32,000 nucleotides of DNA, taken from contig JAIUPJ010000001.1 in the NCBI GenBank assembly GCA_020160975.1, positions 360,001 to 392,000 on the forward strand, written 5' to 3'. Source of the DNA: Candidatus Saccharimonadota bacterium (GTDB lineage: Bacteria > Patescibacteriota > Saccharimonadia > Saccharimonadales > Saccharimonadaceae). The notes under the pieces were generated by a model. That model was not told the DNA's origin. It ran no database searches and saw only the letters and a list, made by a program, of their open reading frames with translations. A program made the position numbers and the translations under genes. Positions 7,729 through 30,014 of this stretch are shown here, piece by piece (position 1 is the stretch's first letter; every line of letters begins with the position of its first letter).

Positions 7729-8347
7729 AGACCCTCACAATCGTTCCAACTGTCATTGGCACAGCGAGTCCCACACTATCCCAGCAGCCGTGAATATAGA
7801 AATCATAGGCATCAAGCACTGTTCGTAATGCAGGGTTTGGTGTGGCATTTTCTGCTTTGACAACTTGCACCCATATGCCGTAGGCTTTTGGTGTCGCGGC
7901 GCCATACGTCACCTGCGCATAGGTACTGGCAGCTGTATAGTTAGCGGCATCAGCTGGTTTTATATCAAATCCTGCTCCACTTGGTTTTGGTACCACGAAG
8001 AACCCATTTGCTCCACCAGAGGAAAGCTGTCCTACGCTCGGACATGGGCCTGACAATGGCAACGGTCCCCCAGCTGCAGTCACGAGCCTGCCAGTCGATC
8101 CTGCAACACTTTTGTCGCCAACCATTGTCGTCCACGCAGAGTCACCTGACGCCTGAATATAACGAATAATCTCTGCTTGCGAATCAATTTGTTGCCTCAC
8201 GAGGCTTTTTTCGAGACTTCGCTGCGCCATAGCCACTCCTTGGTTCAAGATAGTGAGGCAGCTGACTGCAGCGAGTGAAAAGATAGCAAATGCCAACATC
8301 AGCTCGATCAGTGTATCCCCGCGGTGAAGCCTTGCCATGGTTAGCAT
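7718..8347 (-). CDS. Prepilin-like minor pilin with an atypical +1 residue
   Basis: The N-terminus is M(LTM)ARLHRG/DTLIELMLAFAIFSLAAVS. Gly at -1 and Glu at +5 are conserved, but +1 is Asp rather than Phe or Met. Confidence 0.6.
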   Translation of the reverse strand: MLTMARLHRGDTLIELMLAFAIFSLAAVSCLTILNQGVAMAQRSLEKSLVRQQIDSQAEIIRYIQASGDSAWTTMVGDKSVAGSTGRLVTAAGGPLPLSGPCPSVGQLSSGGANGFFVVPKPSGAGFDIKPADAANYTAASTYAQVTYGAATPKAYGIWVQVVKAENATPNPALRTVLDAYDFYIHGCWDSVGLAVPMTVGTIVRVYDR

Positions 8348-20400: not shown

Positions 20401-20574
20401 TGCAGAGTTTTCTGCATTATTGAACCCGTAGTTGTTGTGATTTCTTGCAGGATCGCCCACTGCAGCAGAGGCAACGTCGCCGTGCAATAGCGATGCCGTC
20501 CCAACAGCAAGAGACAGCGCCATGACAGTGATGAGTTTTGAGAGAGCCGTCAATCGCATGCTAGCCCTGTACAT
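17404..20574 (-). CDS. Large secreted protein, function unknown; candidate pilus-associated adhesin
   Basis: 1056 aa. The signal peptide is MRLTALSKLITVMALSLAVGTASLLHGDVASA. A segment around residues 690-800 (..LTIAGAIDNRVKAFVNGCQLL..VLELWVQS..) looks like a PA14/lectin-type jelly-roll. The protein contains many Cys residues. The gene ends 45 nt upstream of pilM on the same strand. Confidence 0.6.
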   Translation of the reverse strand: MYRASMRLTALSKLITVMALSLAVGTASLLHGDVASAAVGDPARNHNNYGFNNAENSAWWMCNYAAGTSYGARGAIWFANSGASYYTQNVVVADGQNSVPVQIAGSVYACMYGFPGPTYAINIAPRGSNGWRLTGLSSTSLYRGRLPSPAPYYYSSQGNTLAATLNVTGLATNNATSPAQETITIDLYRCMSSNGTSVSGSCYAQPVEVTVIRTPPAPKYTNSAVSNAYVNGSSSVAAADAVVYPGDTVLWRHNLTTTQTAGLFSSRSIDYTYACQIAGVAGSDRQNNPAGSAYTFSSSGTTTVNPPGSGECYGPYTIRNEDVGSTFCHRLEYAPKDQTGGSGASPWSCVRVMARGGITPILETTPTDGSTATDESSFTARFKVKNDTQPAIDTRVEYSAWIWYEKSATDRTYDPATGDSRYFDTSSTGSPFGSGGASVATVRADGSVQEITMNTSVLDMQKGGRVCAAWRISTPTLGVRVMVTDWLTSCVLVGRSPTVQIWGNDGRVGSAITSGLAAASGITGKISTREGGSTTGSFSGSSAYGLWRTGVGAGGSKIAATYDGGASDKDLYKPEYNDQHWTISGVVRPNGSSAIGQTCQYSFDGASRVPMDRETPAYVVVESSNKAGIKITRRAIVGNASPGDVGTYVWGRTSTSASWIGQNVFGQNYNDSRCRDPSALGGGYDNANIYKFKLKDKFTVPADADLSTVKLTIAGAIDNRVKAFVNGCQLLATGRNFPTAGNYVDWVPVVRSDQWLRSGYWAGTLPFSFENANTGCQSFKPGADNVLELWVQSTVTHTGLMIEDISLSGSMNTSKQLTYGSWGEYSMYAPDAIRSIASASGLAAGSASDQQQSWSQLTHANVTMPYGSFAPASQMGVIPNIGGYLSRPGLKGVNIIPSGAVTIDNAFVNANQLMKRSTVIQATGTVTITATNMTYDTSSDDKNMNQLVIVAPDINIQAGVGRVDAWLIAPNGTINTCSNGPGQLTINDCNQPLQVNGALTASHVLLRRTAGADKTTPGGAAETLNLRGDAYIWSRRLSELNGTWTTRAITELPPRY

Positions 20575-21052
20575 CTCCAGACTTCGCTGAATCAGCCGGT
20601 GTAGACTGGATCATCTTCATCTCATTCTCAATACGCACAACACTGGACAGATCGGCCAATTCACCATGAGGGTAGTTGCCCTTACTGAGTAGATCCTTGT
20701 AGGTTCCAAAAGCATTGGCAAATTCATCGCTTTTGCCGGTGCGCATCGTATCTCGCACCACGATATACATACAGGTAGCATTCTGGGTATAGTCTTTGCG
20801 GCTTTTGATCTGAGTCGCCAGCTCAGAGACCTTTGCGGTGTTTGAGAGACCGGCGTTGTACTGCGCCACGTCAGCCGTTGTGCAAACTGGTTGCGTGGAG
20901 CTTGCGAGCACATAGGATTCGCTCGGCTTTTTTATCCCTGCGTACACCCATCCCGTTGCATACAACATTGCTCCAACCGCAATCAGTATGAGGGGAAATC
21001 CTATCACAATTTTCGCCGCAGCAGAGCCATGTCGCCTATCATCTATACCCAC
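20561..21052 (-). CDS. N-terminally anchored hypothetical protein (first gene of the pilus transcription unit)
   Basis: 163 aa, with a GTG start preceded by a GGAGA RBS and a single TM (IVIGFPLILIAVGAMLYATGWVYAG). Its stop overlaps the start of the 1056-aa gene by 14 nt. Confidence 0.5.
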   Translation of the reverse strand: MGIDDRRHGSAAAKIVIGFPLILIAVGAMLYATGWVYAGIKKPSESYVLASSTQPVCTTADVAQYNAGLSNTAKVSELATQIKSRKDYTQNATCMYIVVRDTMRTGKSDEFANAFGTYKDLLSKGNYPHGELADLSSVVRIENEMKMIQSTPADSAKSGDVQG

Positions 21053-21176
21053 TACTTATATCTCCTATTCTACTTATGGTTAGTATAACAGGATTGCGCT
21101 CCCAAAGAAAAGAACTATTCCCTACTCACCCATCGCTCGTACAACGAGCTCGGTATCTGCTATACTACTAACAATT

Positions 21177-21337
21177 ATGAGTTTAAGTATAGGCATATTA
21201 AAGTTCCAGCACAATTGCCTTTCGAACTAAAATTGCGTATCCCGAAGACTGACCACGGTGGTCGAGGCTATTCTAACGAGTACATTGCGAATATCGAAGA
21301 AAATCTATATCTCACCCGCACCGAATAACCAGCTCCC
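21177..21337 (+). pseudogene. Decayed copy of the ychF 5' end (codons 1 to about 60)
   Basis: ATG AGT TTA AGT ATA GGC ATA encodes MSLSIGI, identical to the first 7 residues of the intact YchF at 27603 but using different synonymous codons. Later blocks also align: attgcgaatatcgaagaaaat versus tttgcgacaatcgagccaaat (15/20), and ..ccagctcc versus ..acagctcc. The copy carries indels, frameshifts and an early stop. Similarity ends exactly at the left 18-bp repeat. Confidence 0.6.
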
Positions 21338-21355
21338 TGCTTCTCTCCTGCTATT
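21338..21355 (+). repeat. Left copy of the 18-bp direct repeat TGCTTCTCTCCTGCTATT
   Basis: An exact match to 27308..27325. It overlaps the stop codon of the cytochrome-b5-like gene. Confidence 0.9.
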
Positions 21356-21752
21356 CTTTAGCAAGTATTCCGATTTTGAGCTTAGCAAGTTGTTCGCTTG
21401 CCGCCTCGCTATGAGGGGTGCCTGAACCAACTGGCTGCCCCTCTTGAGTCTGACGTTTTGTAAATAAGGTTGTTGCATCCGTGCCACACGCCCGAAGTAT
21501 TTCATCACCCCCCGGATGACGATTAATAAACTTGGTCAAATCATATACGTCTCCAGATATAATTGCCCAGCAGTCTTCTTTTGAATCATGCTGTGCGACC
21601 TCGTTCATGGTGAATGTTTTTGCTTGTTCGGGTGCGTCTTGAGATGGTGTGTGGGGTTGGCGATTGACTACAAGCACCCAGATACCTGCTCCGATAGCGA
21701 CAACTAGGAATACGGCGATTACAGGTAATATGACGTCGCTCTTCTTACGCAT
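21351..21752 (-). CDS. Membrane-anchored cytochrome b5-like heme-binding domain protein
   Basis: 133 aa. An N-terminal TM is followed by ..FTMNEVAQHDSKEDCWAIISGDVYDLTKFINRHPGGDEIL.., which contains the HPGG motif. A later ..TPHSEA.. offers a candidate second His ligand. Confidence 0.7.
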   Translation of the reverse strand: MRKKSDVILPVIAVFLVVAIGAGIWVLVVNRQPHTPSQDAPEQAKTFTMNEVAQHDSKEDCWAIISGDVYDLTKFINRHPGGDEILRACGTDATTLFTKRQTQEGQPVGSGTPHSEAASEQLAKLKIGILAKE

Positions 21753-21788
21753 GAGTAACTCCTTTGTTCAGTATTGATGTCACTACTC

Positions 21789-22451
21789 CTAGTATCCCCA
21801 TTCTTGCTGCCATTGCTTCATCTGTTCGATTTCTTTTGTTTGAGCGGCTATAACCTCTCTCGCCAAGTCTTTGAGTTCTTGGTGATTGGCATTTGTTTCA
21901 GCGTAGCGAGACATCTCAATAGCTTGTTCATGATGAAGAATCATTTGTTTAAGAAACTCCTTATCGTATTCCTCGCCCTTGAGGTCTTTTAGTTTGTTCA
22001 TCATCTCGACCATATCACCGCCCATATCCATGCCAGCTCCACTATGACTCATGTGACCGCCACTCATCGTCTCTTTATACCCCCACTCTTTTTGCCACTC
22101 TCGCATTTTCATCACTTCTTGTCCTTGCGTCTGTATGATGTTGGTGGAAAGAGTGCGGATTTCTTCGTGGGCTGTAACGGCTCCAGCCTGCTCCGCCATA
22201 TTGAGAGCGCCGTCATGATGAGCTAGCATGTCAGCAATAAAGGCTTCGTCAAACTCGTCGCCGTAGAGAGTGGCGTATTTACTATCTGTGGTTTTCTCGT
22301 CATTAATAGTTTGCTGGGTCGTCTTCATGTCTTGAGCATCAGAAGTCTTTTCGGGTTTAATCGAAAAGACCCCAAAGTACCAAATGGCGGCCGCAAAAGC
22401 CACCAACACGATGATGATAACGGCAAACAGCTTGTTCTTCGTTATTTTCAT
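21789..22451 (-). CDS. DUF305 family protein (paralog a), membrane-anchored, with a Met/His-rich linker
   Basis: There are two DUF305 half-repeats (FIADMLAHHDGALNMAE and FLKQMILHHEQAIEMSR). They are separated by the linker MSGGHMSHSGAGMDMGGDMVEMM. Confidence 0.8.
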   Translation of the reverse strand: MKITKNKLFAVIIIVLVAFAAAIWYFGVFSIKPEKTSDAQDMKTTQQTINDEKTTDSKYATLYGDEFDEAFIADMLAHHDGALNMAEQAGAVTAHEEIRTLSTNIIQTQGQEVMKMREWQKEWGYKETMSGGHMSHSGAGMDMGGDMVEMMNKLKDLKGEEYDKEFLKQMILHHEQAIEMSRYAETNANHQELKDLAREVIAAQTKEIEQMKQWQQEWGY

Positions 22452-23077
22452 TACTCTCCCTTTTGTAAGTCTTCTAATCTTTTAATATCGTTCTTGTAGC
22501 TGGTGAGGCTTTTATTTTTGAATTCAATCAGCTTGCCATATTGAAGATCGCTAACCACACCGCTGTCCTGAATTGCGCCCTCGTGGTGTGCAATCATAAG
22601 ACTAATGAAAAGCCTGTCTGCGTCACTACCGGTTGCAGCTTTAAGCGTTGCCATGTTTGTTGCTGACGCGAGGCCAAGAAAAGTAGGGTACATGTCATGA
22701 CCGTCCATTTCAGGAAAATCAGACAGATTCGTGTATGTTTCGTTCCACTCGCCCAGCCAGCTCTTATATTGATCTTCGGCGCTTTTTTGCTCCTGTTGTA
22801 TCTTTGTAGCTATTTCACGGACAACTTGGTTGGTTGATACCGCTAAGACGGCCTCTGTCATCTCTATAGCTTGTTGGTTGTGGACAATCATCTTTCGAGA
22901 GAAGTCTACATCAGAAAAATCATGTTTGTTTGGATCGGGTTGATTTTGATTGTTACTTACAGGAGGCGTTGTTTTTGGTGGAGCTGAAACTGACCGGTTT
23001 TGAAAAACCAACCAGCCTAGCACGACCGCACCAACTACCGATGCTGCAATCAGTGTTACTAACGTCTTTTTCATCAC
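22451..23077 (-). CDS. DUF305 family protein (paralog b), divergent
   Basis: The half-repeats are FSRKMIVHNQQAIEMTE (HH replaced by HN) and LFISLMIAHHEGAIQDS. It has no Met-rich linker. An N-terminal TM is present. Confidence 0.7.
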   Translation of the reverse strand: MMKKTLVTLIAASVVGAVVLGWLVFQNRSVSAPPKTTPPVSNNQNQPDPNKHDFSDVDFSRKMIVHNQQAIEMTEAVLAVSTNQVVREIATKIQQEQKSAEDQYKSWLGEWNETYTNLSDFPEMDGHDMYPTFLGLASATNMATLKAATGSDADRLFISLMIAHHEGAIQDSGVVSDLQYGKLIEFKNKSLTSYKNDIKRLEDLQKGE

Positions 23078-23088
23078 TAGACCTCGCT

Positions 23089-23607
23089 CTACCTTGCAAG
23101 AGGCTCTGGGCTTTTCCCCAGATTCCTCATCACATACTCTTCTATTTTCTTTTGATCATAGCTTGCTAATGACTCACTTCTGCGCCACGAACTCAGCTCG
23201 ATAGGCGATGTATTAGCCTGACGGGGTGCAAGTACAATCTTCGTTGGCTTAAACTCTGAATTCGAGAATGGAGCGGACAGAAGACCCTTAAGCTTCTCAA
23301 TTTGATCTTGTGGCAAATCAGGTTGGTACGAGACATAGATTCCGCCATGCTCCATATTGTGTATCACTTGGTCGTCACGAACTTCAGTATCGTAAACGCC
23401 CCATGCAACGGGATTAGCATGCGAGCCAGAAGTAGGCGGTTGGTCACCGCCATACTCCTTGCTGCTCACGTGTTCACGGCCATGATCGGCTTGTTCAATG
23501 CCTGGACGTGGTGGTTCTGGTGGCCTATTTATCTTTCCGATTACCAAAGCCCCGCCAAACGCAATGACGATTGCCCCTATAACAATGGGGAATGGCTTAA
23601 CTTTCAT
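23089..23607 (-). CDS. DUF3105 domain protein, membrane-anchored
   Basis: The segment ..YGGDQPPTSGSHANPVAWGVYDTEVRDDQVIHNMEHGGIYVSYQPDLP.. matches the DUF3105 pattern as I remember it (PP.SG.H...WG.Y...H.LEHG). Confidence 0.75.
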   Translation of the reverse strand: MKVKPFPIVIGAIVIAFGGALVIGKINRPPEPPRPGIEQADHGREHVSSKEYGGDQPPTSGSHANPVAWGVYDTEVRDDQVIHNMEHGGIYVSYQPDLPQDQIEKLKGLLSAPFSNSEFKPTKIVLAPRQANTSPIELSSWRRSESLASYDQKKIEEYVMRNLGKSPEPLAR

Positions 23608-24250
23608 AACCCCAGTCTTTTTGCCATTGTTTCATCTGCTTGATTTCTTTTGTCTGTGCGGTGACGATTGCTTTTGTCAGGTCTTTCACTTCCTGATGTT
23701 CGGCGTTCTTTTCACCTGGTGCAGCCATATCAAGCGCTCCTTGGTGGTGCATGATCATTTGCTCGATAAAAGCTTTGTCAAACTCATCACCCGTCTTTCC
23801 CTCCAGGGCGCTGTTCATACCAGCCATCTCATCCATCATACCCATAGCACTGTGATCCATCATGTTGTCGGCACTTGTCGATGGATAACCCCATTCTTTT
23901 TGCCAAGCCGTCATCTGACTAATCTCACCCTCTTGAGCCGAGATGATGTCGTTCGCCATATCTTTCAGCTCTTGGTGCTTGGCATTTTTCTGTGCTAGCT
24001 TCGCCATATCAACAGCACCTTGGTGGTGGGCTATCATATTGGCGATGAAATTACGGTCATAGGTTTCGCCAGTCATGGCAGCATATTGCTTGTATGTATC
24101 TGACGTTGTATCGACTTGTGCCATTTCTGATAGTGGCTGGACTGAAACGCTTCGGAATAGTTGGTCACGGAACACAAAAGTCGCAACACCCACTACAACT
24201 ACAAAAGCGACAAGACCTACAATTAGCATTTGTTTATTCTTTTTATTCAT
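23597..24250 (-). CDS. DUF305 family protein (paralog c), membrane-anchored, with a Met-rich linker
   Basis: The half-repeats are FIANMIAHHQGAVDMAK and FIEQMIMHHQGALDMAA, joined by the linker NMMDHSAMGMMDEMAGMN. An AGGAG RBS is present. Confidence 0.8.
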   Translation of the reverse strand: MNKKNKQMLIVGLVAFVVVVGVATFVFRDQLFRSVSVQPLSEMAQVDTTSDTYKQYAAMTGETYDRNFIANMIAHHQGAVDMAKLAQKNAKHQELKDMANDIISAQEGEISQMTAWQKEWGYPSTSADNMMDHSAMGMMDEMAGMNSALEGKTGDEFDKAFIEQMIMHHQGALDMAAPGEKNAEHQEVKDLTKAIVTAQTKEIKQMKQWQKDWGYES

Positions 24251-24297
24251 AAAGTACTCCTAATTTAGCTATTTAGTAAAACGTAAACAGCTAAATC

Positions 24298-24672
24298 TCA
24301 AGCACGAAAGACGGTCAAACCAATGTAGGCGGGTACGCCACCAGGGGGTGGTTCTCTATCCCCGGCAGCTCTTGTCTCTTGACTATGCTTTTCTTCAAGG
24401 GCCAAAAGGCGTGATGTCTGGAACTGAACATAAAATGGAGGCTGCGGCTTGTCATCCTCGTCTTTCTCGGTACCTTTGATGAACTCGTCTTTGTGAAGAG
24501 TTGCCGTCGTACAAGCAGTAAAACAATTCGATGAACTTACTTGATGAGATGCACCCCCCATTGAGTGCCCCATATTCATCGTCTGCACAGCAGCCGCATG
24601 TATACCTAACGACAGCACACTGAGTACTGAAAGCATGAATACGGAAACAACTCCTTGGAACACTCGTTTCAT
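24298..24672 (-). CDS. Secreted hypothetical protein with an N-terminal Met/His motif
   Basis: 124 aa. The signal peptide (VVSVFMLSVLSVLSLGIHAAA) is followed by VQTMNMGHSMGGASH, a CxxxC-like stretch (CFTAC), and an acidic and Pro-rich tail. Confidence 0.5.
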   Translation of the reverse strand: MKRVFQGVVSVFMLSVLSVLSLGIHAAAVQTMNMGHSMGGASHQVSSSNCFTACTTATLHKDEFIKGTEKDEDDKPQPPFYVQFQTSRLLALEEKHSQETRAAGDREPPPGGVPAYIGLTVFRA

Positions 24673-24711
24673 ATCTCTATTTTACCGTAATTTACCCCAA
24701 CCGTCATATTT

Positions 24712-24771
24712 CTAGTAGTTTGCTTCGCTGTAATGATGATGGTGATGTTCGTGTTCGTCGTGGTTGTGCAT
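24712..24771 (-). CDS. 19-aa His-rich micro-ORF (MHNHDEHEHHHHHYSEANY)
   Basis: The sequence is not in the ORF track. On the minus strand, the TAA stop of the ATPase is followed directly by GGAGGTAGT and then ATG CAC AAC CAC GAC GAA CAC GAA CAT CAC CAT CAT CAT TAC AGC GAA GCA AAC TAC TAG. Nine of its 19 residues are His. Confidence 0.4.
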   Translation of the reverse strand: MHNHDEHEHHHHHYSEANY

Positions 24772-24780
24772 ACTACCTCC

Positions 24781-26919
24781 TTATAATTTTACCCGTCGTA
24801 AGAACTGTGCGTTGATAGCAACGATAATGGTCGAGAGCGACATTAGAACAGCTCCTAGTGCTGGCGAGAGGACAAAACCAAGTACCGAGGTAACACCAGC
24901 AGCTAGTGGAATCGCCAGAGCATTATAACCAGTCGCCCAAGCAAGGTTTTGAAGCATCTTGCTGTAGGTACGTTTTGAAAGCGTCACGATTTTCGCCACA
25001 CCTCGTGGGTCGCTGCTTGCGAGCACGATTCCAGCCGACTCAATCGCCACATCCGTACCCGCACCAATCGCAATGCCGATATTAGCTTGTGTCAGTGCCG
25101 GTGCATCATTTACTCCATCACCGACCATCGCTACCCGGCTGCCGTCGGCCTGTAACTTCTTGACCGTCTCGGCTTTGTTTTCGGGCAAGACTTCGGCGAA
25201 GTACTCTTTTATACCAAGTTCTTTTGCTACCCATGCCGCCACACCCTTGCTATCACCCGTCAGCATAGCAACTCGCTTACCCATACTGTGAAGTGTTGCC
25301 ACAGCTTCCTTTGATTCCTCACGAATAACATCGGCAAGTAGAATAGCTCCGAGTACCGTCTTATTTTCGATAACATACACGACAGTTTTTCCATCAGTTG
25401 AGGCTTCGCCTGTGGCTGTTTGCAGTTCATCGTCTAGTTCAATATCCAATTCTTCGAGTAATCTCGGCCCACCGACGTAGACGCTTTTTCCGTCAGCCTT
25501 GGCTCGTACACCACGACCAGAAAGTGCCGAAAAGTCAGTGGTGTGAGTTTCCGGCACATTTTGACCGTGTGCATACTGGAAAATCGCTTTCGCAATTGGG
25601 TGTTCTGATTCACGCTCAAGAGCAGCAGCAAGGCCAAGAACATGGTTCTTGTCTTTAGCAATGACATCAACCACACCCTGCTCACCCTTTGTCAGCGTAC
25701 CTGTCTTATCAAACAATACGACGTCGATATTGCGTGCCGCTTCGAGTGCCATTCGTTCACGCACCAGCAGCCCATTCTTTGCCGCTAGCGTCGTAGAGAT
25801 AGCCGTGACAAGTGGGATAGCCAAACCAAGAGCATGTGGACAAGCAATCACTAACACCGTTACGACTCGCTCAAAAATAAACCCAGCCGACTCACCAGCC
25901 AGCCACCAACCAATAAGCGTCAGTAAGGCTGCACCGATAGCAATAAATGTAAGATAAAAAGCCGCTTTGTCTGCGAGTACTTGTGTTTTTGACTTGCTAG
26001 TCTGAGCGTCTTCAACCAGCTTCATGATGCCAGCAAGTGCCGTATCGCTGCCGACTTTCGTGACTTCAATTGTCAGTGCTCCATTAGCGTTAATTGTACC
26101 CCCAATTACCTCGGCTCCAATCGCTTTCTTTACCGGCTTTGATTCACCCGTAAGCATTGACTCGTTTATCTCGGATTCACCTTTGATGACAGTCCCGTCT
26201 ACAGGTACTTGAGTACCCGGGCGAACAAGTATCATATCACCGACTTTGAGCTGGCTGACAGAGACAGTGCGGCTTTTCCCATGTTCGAGTAACTCCGCCT
26301 CATCGGGTAGTAACTTGGCAAGTTCGTTTAACGCACCTTGTGCACTTTCCACCGACGCCATTTCTAGCCAGTGACCAAGCAACATAATCGTCACTAATGT
26401 GGCCAGTTCCCACCAGAAGTCCATACCACTAACGAGCTTGAGCGTGACGAGGCTGCTATAAATAAACGCAACGGTAATCGCCATTGAAATAAGCGTCATC
26501 ATGCCAGGCTGCTTAGCTGCAAGCTCGGCCTTGGCACTCTTTAGGAATACTAAGCCGCCATAGAAAAAGATAATCGCACCAAAAATAGCTGGAATATATT
26601 CGCTGCCAGGAAACATCAGCTCAAAGCCTAGCCAGCCCTGAACGGTGTGCGAAAACAACAGCGTCGGGATAGTCAGCAGAAGACCCAGCCAAAACTTTTG
26701 CTTGAACATATTAGGGCTATGTCCAGCGTGCTTGTCATGGTCGTGTTCATGGGACGGCTGTACCTTTGTCTTTTCTAAAGCCATATGGCACTTCGGACAC
26801 ATGCCTGGCTTGTCTGATGTTACATCAGGGTGCATTGGGCAAGCATACTGCATATCTGACTGTGTGAGCATGGCGTCGTGGCTCATACCTTGGTGATGGT
26901 GATGTTCGTGATGATTCAT
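24781..26919 (-). CDS. copB: Heavy-metal (copper-type) P1B ATPase with a CPH transmembrane motif and a His-rich N-terminus
   Basis: 712 aa. Motifs present are TGES, DKTGTLT, SEHPIAKAI, GDGVNDAPAL and the TM motif VIACPHALGL. The N-terminus is MNHHEHHHHQGMSHD, followed by CPMHPDVTSDKPGMCPKCHM and SHEHDHDKHAGH. Confidence 0.9.
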   Translation of the reverse strand: MNHHEHHHHQGMSHDAMLTQSDMQYACPMHPDVTSDKPGMCPKCHMALEKTKVQPSHEHDHDKHAGHSPNMFKQKFWLGLLLTIPTLLFSHTVQGWLGFELMFPGSEYIPAIFGAIIFFYGGLVFLKSAKAELAAKQPGMMTLISMAITVAFIYSSLVTLKLVSGMDFWWELATLVTIMLLGHWLEMASVESAQGALNELAKLLPDEAELLEHGKSRTVSVSQLKVGDMILVRPGTQVPVDGTVIKGESEINESMLTGESKPVKKAIGAEVIGGTINANGALTIEVTKVGSDTALAGIMKLVEDAQTSKSKTQVLADKAAFYLTFIAIGAALLTLIGWWLAGESAGFIFERVVTVLVIACPHALGLAIPLVTAISTTLAAKNGLLVRERMALEAARNIDVVLFDKTGTLTKGEQGVVDVIAKDKNHVLGLAAALERESEHPIAKAIFQYAHGQNVPETHTTDFSALSGRGVRAKADGKSVYVGGPRLLEELDIELDDELQTATGEASTDGKTVVYVIENKTVLGAILLADVIREESKEAVATLHSMGKRVAMLTGDSKGVAAWVAKELGIKEYFAEVLPENKAETVKKLQADGSRVAMVGDGVNDAPALTQANIGIAIGAGTDVAIESAGIVLASSDPRGVAKIVTLSKRTYSKMLQNLAWATGYNALAIPLAAGVTSVLGFVLSPALGAVLMSLSTIIVAINAQFLRRVKL

Positions 26920-27200
26920 TATTTACCCCTCACATTGTGTAGCTCGTATAGTTGTGATAGCTCGCTTAGTGCCTTCTCTTGTTGTTTTTCATCGCCAGAT
27001 GCCATCATTGCCTTAATATGTGTAGCGATATGGTTTTCAAGCACCAGCTTGTTGAGCGACGCCAGAGACTTCTGAATAGCAAGACTTTGCGTCAAAATAT
27101 CCATGCAATACACATCTCCATCAATCATTTTTTGCAAACCCTTGAACTGGCCTTCGATTATCTTGGACCTGTGTGTCGTTCTCTCTTTTACTGTCTTCAT
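26919..27200 (-). CDS. csoR: CsoR/RcnR-family metal-sensing transcriptional repressor
   Basis: 93 aa. The segment ..IIEGQFKGLQKMIDGDVYCMDILTQSLAIQKSL..LENHIATHI.. carries the family ligand positions Cys, His and then His where CsoR has Cys. The stop overlaps the ATPase ATG by 1 nt. Confidence 0.85.
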   Translation of the reverse strand: MKTVKERTTHRSKIIEGQFKGLQKMIDGDVYCMDILTQSLAIQKSLASLNKLVLENHIATHIKAMMASGDEKQQEKALSELSQLYELHNVRGK

Positions 27201-27203
27201 AGA

Positions 27204-27237
27204 TTCTATGATATACCCCCCTGGGGTATATTGTCAA
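27204..27237 (-). promoter_or_regulatory. Promoter with an embedded CsoR-type operator; probably produces a leaderless csoR transcript
   Basis: On the minus strand, TTGACA (27237..27232) is followed by an 18-nt spacer and TATCAT (27213..27208), then 7 nt and the ATG. The spacer is the palindrome ATATACCCC-nnn-GGGGTATAT (27211..27231). That is the G/C-tract-in-AT-arms architecture known for CsoR operators. There is no Shine-Dalgarno sequence before the ATG. Confidence 0.65.
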
Positions 27238-27307
27238 CAACGTAAACCATTCATGATTAGCCCATCAATAAACAGACTGGAGTACTATGTTTATGTTAGA
27301 ATTACCG

Positions 27308-27325
27308 TGCTTCTCTCCTGCTATT
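27308..27325 (+). repeat. Right copy of the 18-bp direct repeat TGCTTCTCTCCTGCTATT
   Basis: An exact match to 21338..21355. It lies 108 bp upstream of the csoR ATG. Confidence 0.9.
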
Positions 27326-27424
27326 TATTGTTCAAACATCCTACAAAGCCACGCTTTTGGGTCGTCGTTTAGCATTAATCGTTCGACTAGCCCCTCTTCC
27401 TCAACAAACAGAAGTATAAGTGGT

Positions 27425-27571
27425 AAAATAGATGTCGATGTACTCGTTGCTAAAGCTACTCAAAAGCTTGGCGAAGTCACCTTTCAGCAAAAGAAACATA
27501 TTGTTGAGCGAGTTATTAATAAAGTTATTGCAAGTCCGCAGGAGGTCACCATATGGGGTCAAATACCCTTA
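27425..27571 (+). pseudogene. Remnant resembling the C-terminal end of a large serine recombinase
   Basis: The frame translates to KIDVDVLVAKATQKLGEVTFQQKKHIVERVINKVIASPQEVTIWGQIPL. This resembles the conserved tail of recombinase-family proteins (..FEEKR.ii..lv.kV.v....v.I.g.iP). No catalytic domain lies upstream. The track ORF 27287..27679 begins with low-complexity sequence and runs into ychF. This is a recognition-based call only. Confidence 0.35.
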
Positions 27572-27602
27572 ACAGCTGTTTTAGCCACAAGAAAGGTCAA
27601 GA

Positions 27603-28685
27603 ATGAGCCTGTCCATCGGCATAGTCGGACTGCCAAATGTTGGCAAGTCTACCCTCTTCAATGCGTTAACGCACAATGATATTCTTGCGGCTAACTATCC
27701 ATTTGCGACAATCGAGCCAAATACAGGTGTCGTACCTGTCCCTGATGAGCGCCTGGAAGCACTCGCAAAGCTCTACAGCTCCGAAAAGATCGTCCCAGCG
27801 ACGGTGTCGTTCGTCGACATCGCCGGTCTCGTAGCAGGCGCCAGTAAGGGCGAAGGGCTTGGCAACAAGTTTTTGGCCAACATCCGCGAGTGTGATGCCA
27901 TTGTGCACATTGTTCGTGCGTTTGAAAATGATGATATCATCCATGTCAGCCACGGCATCAACCCCCAACGCGACATTGAGACGATCGAAACCGAGCTCAT
28001 GCTCGCGGATATCGAGACCATCGACCGCGTACTCCCACGCCTACAAAAAGAATCAAAGGCACAGCCAAAGGCAAAGGGTTCGGTACAACTGCTCGAATCG
28101 CTCCGTACCTCACTCGAGCAAGCCGACCCACTTCCTGCTCGTGCCCACACTGCAGAGCTCAAAGAACTTGGGCTACAGCTCCTATCTGCAAAGCCCGTCA
28201 TCTATGTGTTCAATGTCAACGAAGAAACACTCGTCAATGCCGAGGCAAAAGCTGCGCTCACCGCCCTGGCGCGCGAATCAAAAGCGCTGTTCATCTGCGC
28301 CAAGCTCGAGGACGAGCTCAAAGGGCTAAATCCTAGCGACGCCGCCGAGCTACTCGATAGTTACGATATTCCCGAGGCCGGTCTCGTACAAATGATTCAC
28401 GCGGCCTATGATATCCTCGGCCTGCAGAGTTACTTGACTGCTGGGCCAAAAGAAGTCCGCGCGTGGACCATCAAAAAAGGTGCCACGGCACCGCAAGCTG
28501 CTGGTGTGATTCACGGCGACTTTGAGCGCGGATTTATCGCGGCGCAGATCATTGATTATCATGACCTCGTCGCCGCAGGCAGCGAAACAGCCGCAAAAGC
28601 CGCTGGCAAAGTCCGCACCGAGGGAAAAGACTATATCATGCAGCCCGATGACGTGGTAGAGTTTCGATTCAACGTCAGCAAATAA
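27603..28685 (+). CDS. ychF: Redox-regulated ATPase YchF (Obg-like GTPase family)
   Basis: 360 aa. The N-terminus MSLSIGIVGLPNVGKSTLFNALT is followed by ..ATIEPNTGVVPVPDERL.. and ..DIAGLVAGASKGEGLGNKFL... The C-terminal TGS-like end reads VRTEGKDYIMQPDDVVEFRFNV. Confidence 0.95.
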   Translation: MSLSIGIVGLPNVGKSTLFNALTHNDILAANYPFATIEPNTGVVPVPDERLEALAKLYSSEKIVPATVSFVDIAGLVAGASKGEGLGNKFLANIRECDAIVHIVRAFENDDIIHVSHGINPQRDIETIETELMLADIETIDRVLPRLQKESKAQPKAKGSVQLLESLRTSLEQADPLPARAHTAELKELGLQLLSAKPVIYVFNVNEETLVNAEAKAALTALARESKALFICAKLEDELKGLNPSDAAELLDSYDIPEAGLVQMIHAAYDILGLQSYLTAGPKEVRAWTIKKGATAPQAAGVIHGDFERGFIAAQIIDYHDLVAAGSETAAKAAGKVRTEGKDYIMQPDDVVEFRFNVSK

Positions 28686-28892: not shown

Positions 28893-28978
28893 TATTAATT
28901 TTCTACTTTGAATCATCCGTATGATAGGAAAACCTATTTGGTTTTACCTATAATTATACAAATGAGAAGAGGCCGCAC

Positions 28979-29015
28979 CGGGCCCTGCCAACGCTTGATT
29001 GCGTCGCAGGGCCCG
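28979..29015 (-). terminator. GC-rich hairpin just 3' of the high-GC surface-protein gene
   Basis: The arms CGGGCCCTGC and GCAGGGCCCG form a 10-bp stem with a 17-nt loop, 20 nt downstream of the stop at 29036. There is no clear T-run. Confidence 0.35.
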
Positions 29016-29035
29016 ATAACGGCCTCAGAAATCAG

Positions 29036-30014
29036 TCATCTTCTCTCTTGGCGGCGCCGCCGCCACGCCACCAGCAGAACCAAGATCCCGAGAGCCAGGG
29101 CAATGCCCAGACCGATCGGCAGGACGAACGACTCGCCTGGCAACTTGGGCGTCGCGGTCAGGGTTGACCCGTCCGCGCTCTCATTCAAGCTGTTCTGGTC
29201 GGTGTCCGCTGGCAGCGGACCCTCCGAGTTCGGCGGGATGACCTGGTTCGTCTGGTTCGGCTGGTCGACATACCCTGGTGTTGAGGGGGTGCCGACGACG
29301 AGAGTCGCGGTGCGGGTTGACCCGTCCGCGCTCTTGATCCAGCTGTTCTGGTCGGTGTCCGCTGGCAGCGGATCCTTCCAGGTCGGCGGGATGACCTGGT
29401 TCGGCTTGTTCGGCGGGTCGACAGACCCTGGTGTCGAGGGAATGTCGACGACGATGACGGGTGGGATGACCACCACGCCGTCGTCCGACGGAAGCCCGAA
29501 GACCTTGGGGGCCGTCGTCTCGTCCGTCCAGGTGCTCCCCTCGACAACGAGAGTCGCGGTGCGGGTTGACCCGTCCGCGCTCTCACTCCAGTCGATCTTG
29601 TCGGTGTCCGCTGACAGCGGATCCTTCCAGGTCGGCGGGATGACCTGGTTCGGCTGGTTCGGCGGGTCGACAAACCCTGGTGTTGAGGGAATGTCGACGA
29701 CGCACGAGAACGGGCGAACGGTGCCGCCGTACGTGCTGTAGTACGGCAAGCCGGTTGGGTCACCGTCCCTGAGCCACATGATCGTGGGCCGGAGCAGGCG
29801 CCTCCTCCTCGGTGACTGTCGGAGCGACGGTCTCCTCTGCTGGCTCGGGAGCCGGCGGGGTGTCGACGACGTCGGAGGCAGCCGGAACGACCGCCTCCGA
29901 GGTCGCGACGACCTCGGTCTGGCTGGGAACGTCATCGGCCGAAGCCGAAGACGCTCCCATGAAGGTCAGGCCGGCGGCAAGGATGCCACAGGCCAGCTTA
30001 CGCGAAATCTTCAC
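29036..30014 (-). pseudogene. High-GC, repeat-containing, C-terminally anchored surface protein gene, interrupted by a frameshift
   Basis: GTG start at 30014 with a GAGGAA RBS. The signal peptide is MKISRKLACGILAAGLTFMGASSASA, followed by an Ala/Pro/Glu/Thr-rich spacer (frame a, stop at 29760). The sensible continuation is in another frame: ..WLRDGDPTGLPYYSTYGG, then three copies of a roughly 51-aa repeat. The C-terminus is ..KLPGESFVLPIGLGIALALGILVLLVAWRRRRQERR, a sorting-signal-like motif plus TM plus basic tail. The N-terminal part of the track ORF 29036..29935 is Arg/Pro/Ser noise from the wrong frame. Confidence 0.6.
29151..29705. repeat. Three intragenic copies of a roughly 153-nt repeat (starts 29151, 29304, 29553)
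   Basis: Each copy begins GTCGCGGT(C/G)(A/C)GGGTTGACCCGTCCGCGCTC.. and continues ..GGTGTCCGCTG(G/A)CAGCGGA(T/C)CC..GGCGGGATGACCTGGTTCG... Copies 1 and 2 are adjacent, with a period of 153 nt. Copies 2 and 3 are separated by an extra 96 nt. Confidence 0.85.

Follow-up and report, generated by a model that had tools for sequence, protein, structure and literature searches.

The window analysed here, a stretch of 32,000 nucleotides from a Candidatus Saccharimonadota bacterium (contig JAIUPJ010000001.1, positions 360,001 to 392,000; coordinates below count from its first letter), carries a minus-strand metal-resistance operon between the pilus-associated gene for a 163-residue protein (p163) and ychF. 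A sequence-only reading of this DNA had noticed that an 18-bp direct repeat, TGCTTCTCTCCTGCTATT, brackets the operon, and had taken the pair for the att-like ends of an integrated, potentially excisable cassette. The gene content that it listed between the two copies is confirmed by Pfam (Cyt-b5, three DUF305, DUF3105, a P1B ATPase with HMBD, and CsoR). Its interpretation was half right: synteny and intact elements in relatives indicate that the operon is acquired DNA at an integration site, and the 18-mers are not its ends. The operon is probably the copper cargo of a decayed serine-recombinase integrative element of 6.4 kb (about 21197-27622) that targeted ychF and holds the 18-mers in its interior.

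The repeat itself is real. TGCTTCTCTCCTGCTATT is present in exactly two copies in the window, both on the plus strand (21338-21355 and 27308-27325), just as had been read, and no further copy with up to two mismatches was found in the whole window. None of 100 shuffles contained two matches of the 18-mer, the identity widens to 20 of 21 positions (21335-21355 against 27305-27325), and the longest exact same-strand repeat reached at least 18 nt in only 1 of 300 first-order Markov simulations of 32 kb (p ~0.003), which makes the earlier expectation of about 10^-2 a fair one. The left copy does lie over the TAG stop codon of the last gene, cytochrome b5, and the right copy 107-108 nt from the csoR start at 27200, where 108 bp had been given. 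Chance pairing of two 18-mers is excluded, and the repeat is non-random. That it could be a coincidence with no history or function, as its shortness and a census of metagenomes might suggest (21 matches of the 18-mer, of which 19 stand in unrelated contexts and 2 are right copies of the window element), is very improbable in view of the simulations, the 20/21 extension and the recurrence of related pairs in other elements, described below.

That the block is an insertion follows from the loci of relatives (denoted L plus a number). A YchF scan of species-representative genomes showed the relatives to be Candidatus Saccharimonas/Saccharibacteria (metagenome-assembled genomes), a group from which the window probably comes as well. 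The order pilM-(pilus protein)-ychF-ftsJ is kept without the operon in L021-L025, L029-L032 and others, and in the closest of them, L021 (84% YchF identity), only 95 bp lie between the divergent pilus-associated gene and ychF. The site is empty in L021-L025, L029, L030 and L032, occupied in L027, L101-L104 and L110, and degenerate in the window and in L031, a presence/absence polymorphism at one ychF site among related genomes. Within the species, exact look-ups of YchF and p163 retrieved about 40 contigs, all of which keep the block on the side that they cover (19 with ychF, 23 with p163), and the 18-mer copies are present wherever the span of a contig covers them. Several long same-species contigs (L002 and L003, of 426 kb, and L004) break off within the operon, at DUF305 or the ATPase, which is probably due to an assembly break at the DUF305 paralogues or to strain variation.

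Comparison with the empty sites and with intact elements places the junctions at 21196/21197 and 27622/27623, at codon 7/8 of ychF. When 21177-21196 is joined to 27623 onward, the target is restored: the product, ATGAGTTTAAGTATAGGCAT followed by AGTCGGACTGCC, encodes MSLSIGIVGLP and matches ychF at the empty sites L021, L022, L024 and L032. At the left junction, the relic ATGAGTTTAAGTATAGGCATA matches the ychF start of the same four empty sites, a ychF start relic also lies at the distal end in L101, L102, L103, L108, L110 and L111, and it is directly followed by TTAAAGTTCCAGCACAATTGCC, conserved in every element examined (the same six), so that relic and conserved element terminus are found together in seven elements. 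At the right junction, the functional ychF begins with ATGAGCCTGTCCATCGGCATA at 27603 and continues with GTCGGACTGCC, its host part running from about 27623 to 28685 (ychF Pfam); empty sites read ATGAG..ATCGG.ATCGTCGG.CTGCC. The crossover falls within GGCATA, at 21192-21197 and 27618-27623. The insertion duplicates ychF codons 1-7 imperfectly, and the flanking repeat of the element is this 21-mer, not the 18-mer. The host segment before the displaced start (21053-21176) differs from host to host (21 of the 26 gap-free columns vary), and -10 boxes of the TGTTATACT/TGTTAAAAT type occupy the same place before ychF at empty sites. The native -10 box ends about 8-10 nt before the ATG (21158-21179 in the window; empty sites L021, L024 and L032), which suggests that the ychF transcript is leaderless in these Saccharibacteria. 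Once the element has integrated, the native ychF promoter is directed into it and runs antisense to the copper operon.

The 18-mers, for their part, lie off the insertion boundaries. The window and L101/L102 are homologous from 22262 to 21177-21189, a stretch that includes the left 18-mer and reaches 140-160 bp past it, and relics of the element lie beyond the right 18-mer as well (27328-27622). No empty site with a single 18-mer, which the cassette reading called for, was found: no match with up to four mismatches exists near ychF in L021, L027 or L031, and the single four-mismatch match in L022 lies elsewhere, at 8237-8254. The position of the junctions, the homology beyond the left copy and the lack of a copy in empty sites refute the 18-mers as attachment sites. 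To our knowledge, serine recombinases make no long direct repeats. The features of the locus are collected in the table.

Features of the window element and its flanks (attL, left attachment site; attR, right attachment site)
Feature	Coordinates	Strand	Remarks
Host intergenic segment, from p163 (20561-21052, -) to the displaced ychF start	21053-21176		holds the native extended -10 box TGCTATACT, 21158-21166
attL host arm: displaced native ychF start and codons 2-7	21177-21197	+	ATGAGTTTAAGTATAGGCATA, MSLSIGI
Element left end: orphan coding segment, last 43 recombinase residues	21197-21328	+	IKVPAQLPFELKLRIPKTDHGGRGYSNEYIANIEENLYLTRTE, then stop; in frame only with the ends joined
Left 18-mer	21338-21355	+	operon sense AATAGCAGGAGAGAAGCA; in the 22-nt spacer where the stops of the recombinase tail (21326-21328) and cytochrome b5 converge
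Cytochrome b5-like	21351-21752	-	Pfam Cyt-b5; TAG stop 21351-21353
DUF305	21789-22451	-	Pfam
DUF305	22451-23077	-	Pfam
DUF3105	23089-23607	-	Pfam
DUF305	23597-24250	-	Pfam
124-residue protein (p124)	24298-24672	-	no family
His-rich micro-ORF (open reading frame)	24712-24771	-	translation MHNHDEHEHHHHHYSEANY, then stop
P1B-type copper ATPase	24781-26919	-	Pfam E1-E2_ATPase, Hydrolase, HMBD (PF00122, PF00702, PF19335)
CsoR repressor	26919-27200	-	Pfam Trns_repr_metal, PF02583 at 1e-19
csoR promoter match TTGACA-18-TATCAT	27208-27237	-	sigma-70-like, 11/12
Candidate CsoR operator	27211-27231		palindrome ATATACCCCCCTGGGGTATAT, inside the csoR promoter match
Right 18-mer	27308-27325	+	starts, in operon sense, at the last base of the small-gene-relic TAA (27327-27325)
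Relic, 3' half of a 53/54-aa gene	27328-27408	-	...EEGLVERLMLNDDPKAWLCRMFEQ, then stop; Smith-Waterman and tblastn against the small 53-aa gene of L101-L103 and the 54-aa gene of L131
3' stump of a large serine recombinase gene (its last 76 codons or so ahead of the junction)	27395-27622	+	52% identity to the L027 recombinase C-terminus
Candidate ychF promoter TCAACA-17-TG-TAAAAT	27401-27429		within the recombinase stump
attR: element-supplied ychF start and codons 2-7	27603-27623	+	ATGAGCCTGTCCATCGGCATA; 14/21 identical to 21177-21197

What the element looked like before it decayed can be read from its relatives. A search with the ATPase protein returned proteins 77-93% identical throughout Saccharibacteria, and the closest of them belong to intact elements at ychF (93% in L101/L102, 91% in L103/L104). 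All four relatives have, at this one site, the copper operon together with a replication gene and a large serine recombinase. The recombinase, of 556-579 amino acids (aa), precedes ychF, its 3' end overlapping the ychF start; that of L102 matches the Pfam families Resolvase (5e-26), Recombinase (2e-15) and Zn_ribbon_recom (9e-8), and precomputed domains agree with this assignment in L101-L104 and L110. In its recombinase half, the intact element reads ychF, recombinase, a small gene, a replication protein (DnaD_N/HTH_36 or AAA_25), an unknown gene, DUF5067/DUF4352 and a small 53-aa gene. The cargo follows as csoR, ATPase, a reductase-like gene (YHS/FAD/NAD), p124, DUF305, DUF3105, DUF305, DUF305 and cytochrome b5, and after cytochrome b5 come the recombinase tail, the ychF relic and host DNA. 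The distal gene order, from cytochrome b5 to p124, is the same in L101-L104, L108 and L133. L110 has the same backbone at ychF with other cargo, L027 has its recombinase immediately upstream of ychF as a long ORF that the contig edge truncates, and L031 holds another recombinase stump. The large serine recombinase is thus a property of the family, of which the window keeps a remnant only.

At the DNA level, the window is 81-87% identical to L101-L103 over csoR-ATPase and only 71-74% over ychF, and this excess over the host gene fits horizontal spread of the element. Taken together, the comparisons support the operon as horizontally acquired cargo. Its base composition had also been read as foreign: the guanine-plus-cytosine (GC) content of the repeat-to-repeat block (46.7%) and of the whole element (46.4%) is lower than that of the rest of the window (50.9%), the direction that had been claimed, at a size that had been overstated (about 42% against 45-58% in the pilus locus). 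A composite or unit transposon was rejected as the vehicle: 21053-27602 contains no transposase ORF, and the only insertion sequence (IS) seen is of the IS3 family, in the variant L123. In L106/L107 (1674-22160), the same operon, with an 88% identical ATPase, accompanies a 529-aa serine recombinase and TrbC/TrbL/TraC-like type IV secretion genes, from which the copper operon would also travel on an element of conjugative type.

The two ends of the element are linked by a gene that integration appears to split. Joined to each other, they restore a continuous recombinase ORF in five of five elements (the window, L101, L102, L103 and L110), which places the attachment site of the free element (attP) inside the recombinase gene. 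The restored tail has 39-43 residues and is conserved (IKVPxQLPFELKLRxPxxDHGGRGYSxEYIAxIExxLY...); in the integrated form, it is replaced by a short, unconserved read-through into ychF. Across the tail segments of seven elements, the variable columns fall 7/5/26 on first, second and third codon positions, out of 38, a third-position bias that indicates purifying selection on the segment, and its first 76 nt or so are 88-89% identical in elements with other cargo. The window has kept the tail segment (21197-21328) intact despite the loss of the remainder of the recombinase gene. Public data hold natural proteins in which the recombinase C-terminus and the tail are contiguous (P0121, P0122 and P0128); these lie on linear contigs by unrelated genes, and one adjoins a cytochrome b5 gene with the 18-mer motif at its end. 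The left flank gave no similarity match to the recombinase of L027 because L027 encodes the tailless, integrated form of the protein. Neither the attP junction (CATCGGCAT-ATTAAAGTTCC) nor the element terminus had a match in viral contigs (0 each). A literature search on Saccharibacteria serine-recombinase elements, or on serine integrase genes with an internal attP, yielded no relevant paper. The arrangement suggests that the split recombinase may provide a built-in difference between the integrated and excised states. A recombinase-tail-like peptide (LPFEPEPTMPPTDRGGQGYSDNYITKIQR, then stop) also lies intergenically at 8405-8488 in L035, 1.5 kb upstream of ychF in a more distant member of the Saccharimonadales, and is probably a trace of an older element at the ychF site.

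Comparison shows that integration gives ychF a new promoter, start codon and first seven codons at the recombinase end (attR), and that the native promoter, ATG and seven codons are left stranded at the far end (attL). In the window lineage, deletions have taken away the recombinase gene except for its last 76 or so codons, together with the replication module, DUF5067 and one half of the small gene; the reductase-like gene went in a second deletion. The CsoR-regulated copper-export operon has survived, along with the stretch that serves ychF expression. Several observations fit this course. At the right end, 27395-27631 codes for the 79 C-terminal residues of a large serine recombinase, whose stump abuts the small-gene relic at 27395-27408. 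When the window was searched by tblastn with the N-terminal part of the recombinase, the DnaD-like protein, p213, DUF5067, the reductase-like protein and SMODS, the small-gene relic was all that was found. The recombinase stump was presumably retained because ychF is now expressed from it, the deletion endpoint lying beside a promoter-like site. L131, a 1.6-kb contig about 95% identical to the window, shows the undeleted state, with DUF5067, a terminator, the intact 54-aa gene, the 18-mer and the csoR promoter. In L123 (620-1900), an IS of the IS3 family (ORFs of 98 and 340 aa) interrupts the small 54-aa gene at the very point of the large deletion in the window, and an IS-mediated adjacent deletion may have given the window state. 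We infer that the cargo has been domesticated in an element that has lost its own mobility.

The cargo combines a CsoR-family repressor, a P1B ATPase with a metal-binding domain and a palindrome over the promoter, as in copper operons of the CsoR/CopA type, and from these features it is assigned as a CsoR-regulated copper-export operon, its metal specificity and regulation being predicted. Its His-rich micro-ORF is what a deletion has left of a 313-aa YHS/FAD/NAD-binding reductase-like gene found 3' of the ATPase in relatives: in the window, the homology blocks 24739-27238 and 23089-24736 are directly adjacent, whereas in L101 about 890 bp with the 313-aa gene lie between them. A second exact direct repeat, the 17-nt TGATGGTGATGTTCGTG at 24737-24753 and 26894-26910, brackets the ATPase gene; its two copies code for the His-rich N-terminal ends of the ATPase and of the lost reductase-like protein.

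If the 18-mers are not ends, they have to be explained as a motif inside the element. All close relatives of the operon have a copy at the cytochrome b5 stop; this copy recurs in eight loci of relatives (five distinct sequence contexts), among them L101-L104, L108, L133 and L137, and varies at positions 12-14, which read AGA in the window, AAT in L101/L102, GGA in L103, L104, L108 and L133, and AAA in L137. The upstream copy is less constant: it follows the DUF5067 stop in L101-L103 and L133 and the small-gene stop in the window, L131 and L123, and it is absent from L108, L134 and L135, which have the same operon. L131 shows the right-copy arrangement of the window with the small gene intact, and in L123 the right copy adjoins the IS3-family insertion. 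As a universal neighbour of the recombinase tail, the motif was rejected, being absent in L110, and it is absent at the cytochrome b5 end in L106. On this distribution, the ancestral copy would be the one between the cytochrome b5 stop and the recombinase-tail stop, a purine-rich sequence internal to the cargo region. On the csoR-promoter side, homology to related elements stops at 27238. At the end of the small gene, relatives read TAAATAG-TACGGCAAAT (TAAATAG-TACGG...) and the window lineage TAAATAG-CAGGAGAGAAG-CACGGTAAT; the perfect 18-mer match rests on this 11-nt difference, CAGGAGAGAAG, together with flanks that already existed. We infer that CAGGAGAGAAG was copied from the cytochrome-b5-end copy in a short templated or gene-conversion event, and that the 18-mer pair has no present role in site-specific recombination.

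Several points weigh against so passive an account of the pair. The 11-nt change could be a gain here or a loss elsewhere, and the surrounding spacer is poorly alignable. L101 and L102 have a matching pair of their own, TAGCAGGAGAATAGCA, after both DUF5067 and cytochrome b5, so that the copies co-vary by lineage (AGA/AGA in the window, AAT/AAT in L101/L102) at differing upstream positions, which hints at recurrent exchange between copies and not at one accident. A cassette with SMODS and a 165-aa protein lies exactly at the downstream motif in L103 (16486-17930), L108 (8298-9740) and L133 (12128-13574), between the operon and the recombinase tail. Around this cassette, homology to the window is interrupted from 21336 to 21287, and GAGAAGC appears again at the far side of the cassette, which suggests that the motif is recombination-prone or repeatedly copied. 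The crossover, moreover, is placed to GGCATA, common to attL and attR, and not to a single dinucleotide, and the searches for excision products were of low power, with only two contigs of the window element in the metagenome collection. The two genes of the inserted cassette, a SMODS nucleotidyltransferase and the 165-aa protein, resemble a cyclic-oligonucleotide-based antiphage signalling system (CBASS).

These same facts would be expected if the operon were a nested cassette, with the 18-mers as recombination sites for its excision, amplification or exchange independently of the element: direct repeats not explained by chance bracket it in two lineages, at differing upstream positions and with co-varying copies, and another cassette entered at the motif in L103, L108 and L133, with GAGAAGC at the far side. 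We nevertheless consider a nested cassette unlikely. L108, L134 and L135 hold the operon with no upstream copy, the two copies in L103 and L133 differ at 3 of 16 positions, and the motif has no dyad symmetry and no associated recombinase and is missing beside the tail in L110. A length of 18-21 bp is short for RecA-dependent exchange. The circle junction, GAATTACCG-18-mer-CTTTAGCAAG, was not among the 21 metagenome matches of the 18-mer, a search of low power with few contigs of the species, and the deletion junction AGCTCCS-18-mer-TATTGTTC (AGCTCC[C/G]-TGCTTCTCTCCTGCTATT-TATTGTTC, the operon lost between the 18-mers) gave 0 matches in metagenomes, again at low power; some 40 same-species contigs keep the operon. 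A broader form of this idea, about which we are equally doubtful, makes the AATAGCAGGAG-NNN-AGCA family the crossover site of an undescribed cargo exchange in Saccharibacteria serine-recombinase elements. Were it true, the copper operon and the SMODS cassette would be captured, swapped or amplified at a motif beside the recombinase tail, which would account for the lineage co-variation of the pairs and for insertions and breakpoints exactly on the motif.

The motif might instead be under selection as a cis signal: a Shine-Dalgarno-like purine tract (AGCAGGAG twice, about 11 nt apart) past stop codons that would act on the messenger RNA 3' end, or a binding site for a protein encoded by the element. 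Every copy does coincide with a stop codon, beginning at it or overlapping it (the cytochrome b5 TAG, the DUF5067 TAG, the small-gene TAA), two AGGAG/GGGAG units are spaced by one helical turn, and the cytochrome-b5-end copy is kept in its eight loci of relatives. The 76-nt contexts of the two window copies, however, fold with z of -0.8 and +1.4, with no significant or shared structure. Rfam gave only three tRNAs over the whole window at the gathering threshold and no match in 20900-21500 at E up to 1. The motif core TAGCAGGAG is not enriched in the window (7 observed against 5.9 expected), no start codon stands at coupling distance, and the upstream copy is dispensable in L108, L134 and L135. 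A selected signal is quite unlikely on this balance, and a fixed, decayed element with its 18-mers as an internal, partly copied motif remains the reading that we prefer.

The mobile elements of Saccharibacteria and other ultra-small episymbionts are poorly described, and few genetic tools exist for these organisms. The present locus defines an element family with a precise, conserved target, ychF codon 7/8, whose two attachment sites can both be reconstructed from the DNA, and its recombinase is a candidate integration tool for Saccharibacteria. Copper resistance (CsoR, P1B ATPase, DUF305/DUF3105) moves among Saccharibacteria as cargo in two element types, and the sampled population has kept the cargo as the mobility genes decayed. 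The locus also carries a caution, in that a statistically real direct repeat bracketing an operon can sit inside an element without being its attachment site. Downstream of ychF, the window has a segment of 56-66% GC at 28900-29950 with 153-nt tandem repeats (29151-29454); the gene there encodes 267, 350, 443 or 453 aa among same-species contigs and is thus a strain-variable repeat protein.

Among known systems, the cargo resembles the CsoR copper operons of Actinobacteria in its CsoR with a G/C-tract palindrome over the promoter, its P1B ATPase with a metal-binding domain and its secreted DUF305 proteins, and differs from them in being cargo of Saccharibacteria mobile elements, both the ychF serine-recombinase type and the L106/L107 type with type IV secretion genes. 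The motif recalls integron cassettes with their attC sites, as a short sequence at gene ends and module junctions where relatives carry the SMODS cassette; unlike in integrons, there is no IntI, no imperfect inverted repeat of attC type and no attI, and the motif is missing with other cargo. An integron cassette array was rejected, the motif having neither dyad symmetry nor a significant fold and no locus examined containing a tyrosine integrase.

Islands mobilized by tyrosine integrases are flanked by direct repeats at tRNA or gene 3' ends. The window element is like them in its foreign cargo between same-orientation repeats, its lower GC and its adjoining recombinase remnant, and unlike them in that the 18-mers lie off the insertion boundaries and are absent from empty sites, and in that the recombinase is of the serine type. 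Elements and prophages with large serine recombinases insert into specific genes, as Listeria A118 in comK, Bacillus SPbeta and skin, and Tn4451 with TnpX do. The family described here shares with them a recombinase at one end of the intact relatives (Resolvase, Recombinase and Zn-ribbon domains), a single gene target, a short shared core at the junctions in place of long direct repeats, and presence/absence polymorphism. It departs from the A118/SPbeta/Tn4451 kind in its target, the 5' end of ychF, to which the element supplies a promoter and the first seven codons; in an attP within the recombinase ORF, so that integration replaces the last 39-43 residues; in its Saccharibacteria hosts; and, for the window copy, in the loss of the recombinase and replication genes.

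The closest parallel to the split gene is the integration-dependent immunity of mycobacteriophages BPs and Brujita, in which attP lies inside the repressor gene (PMC4557955). In both cases, the attachment site falls within the coding sequence of the element's own control machinery, and the integrated and free forms of the protein differ in their C-termini. BPs and Brujita split their repressor gene and integrate with a tyrosine recombinase; in the elements described here, it is the gene of the serine recombinase that is split, with a putative functional effect.

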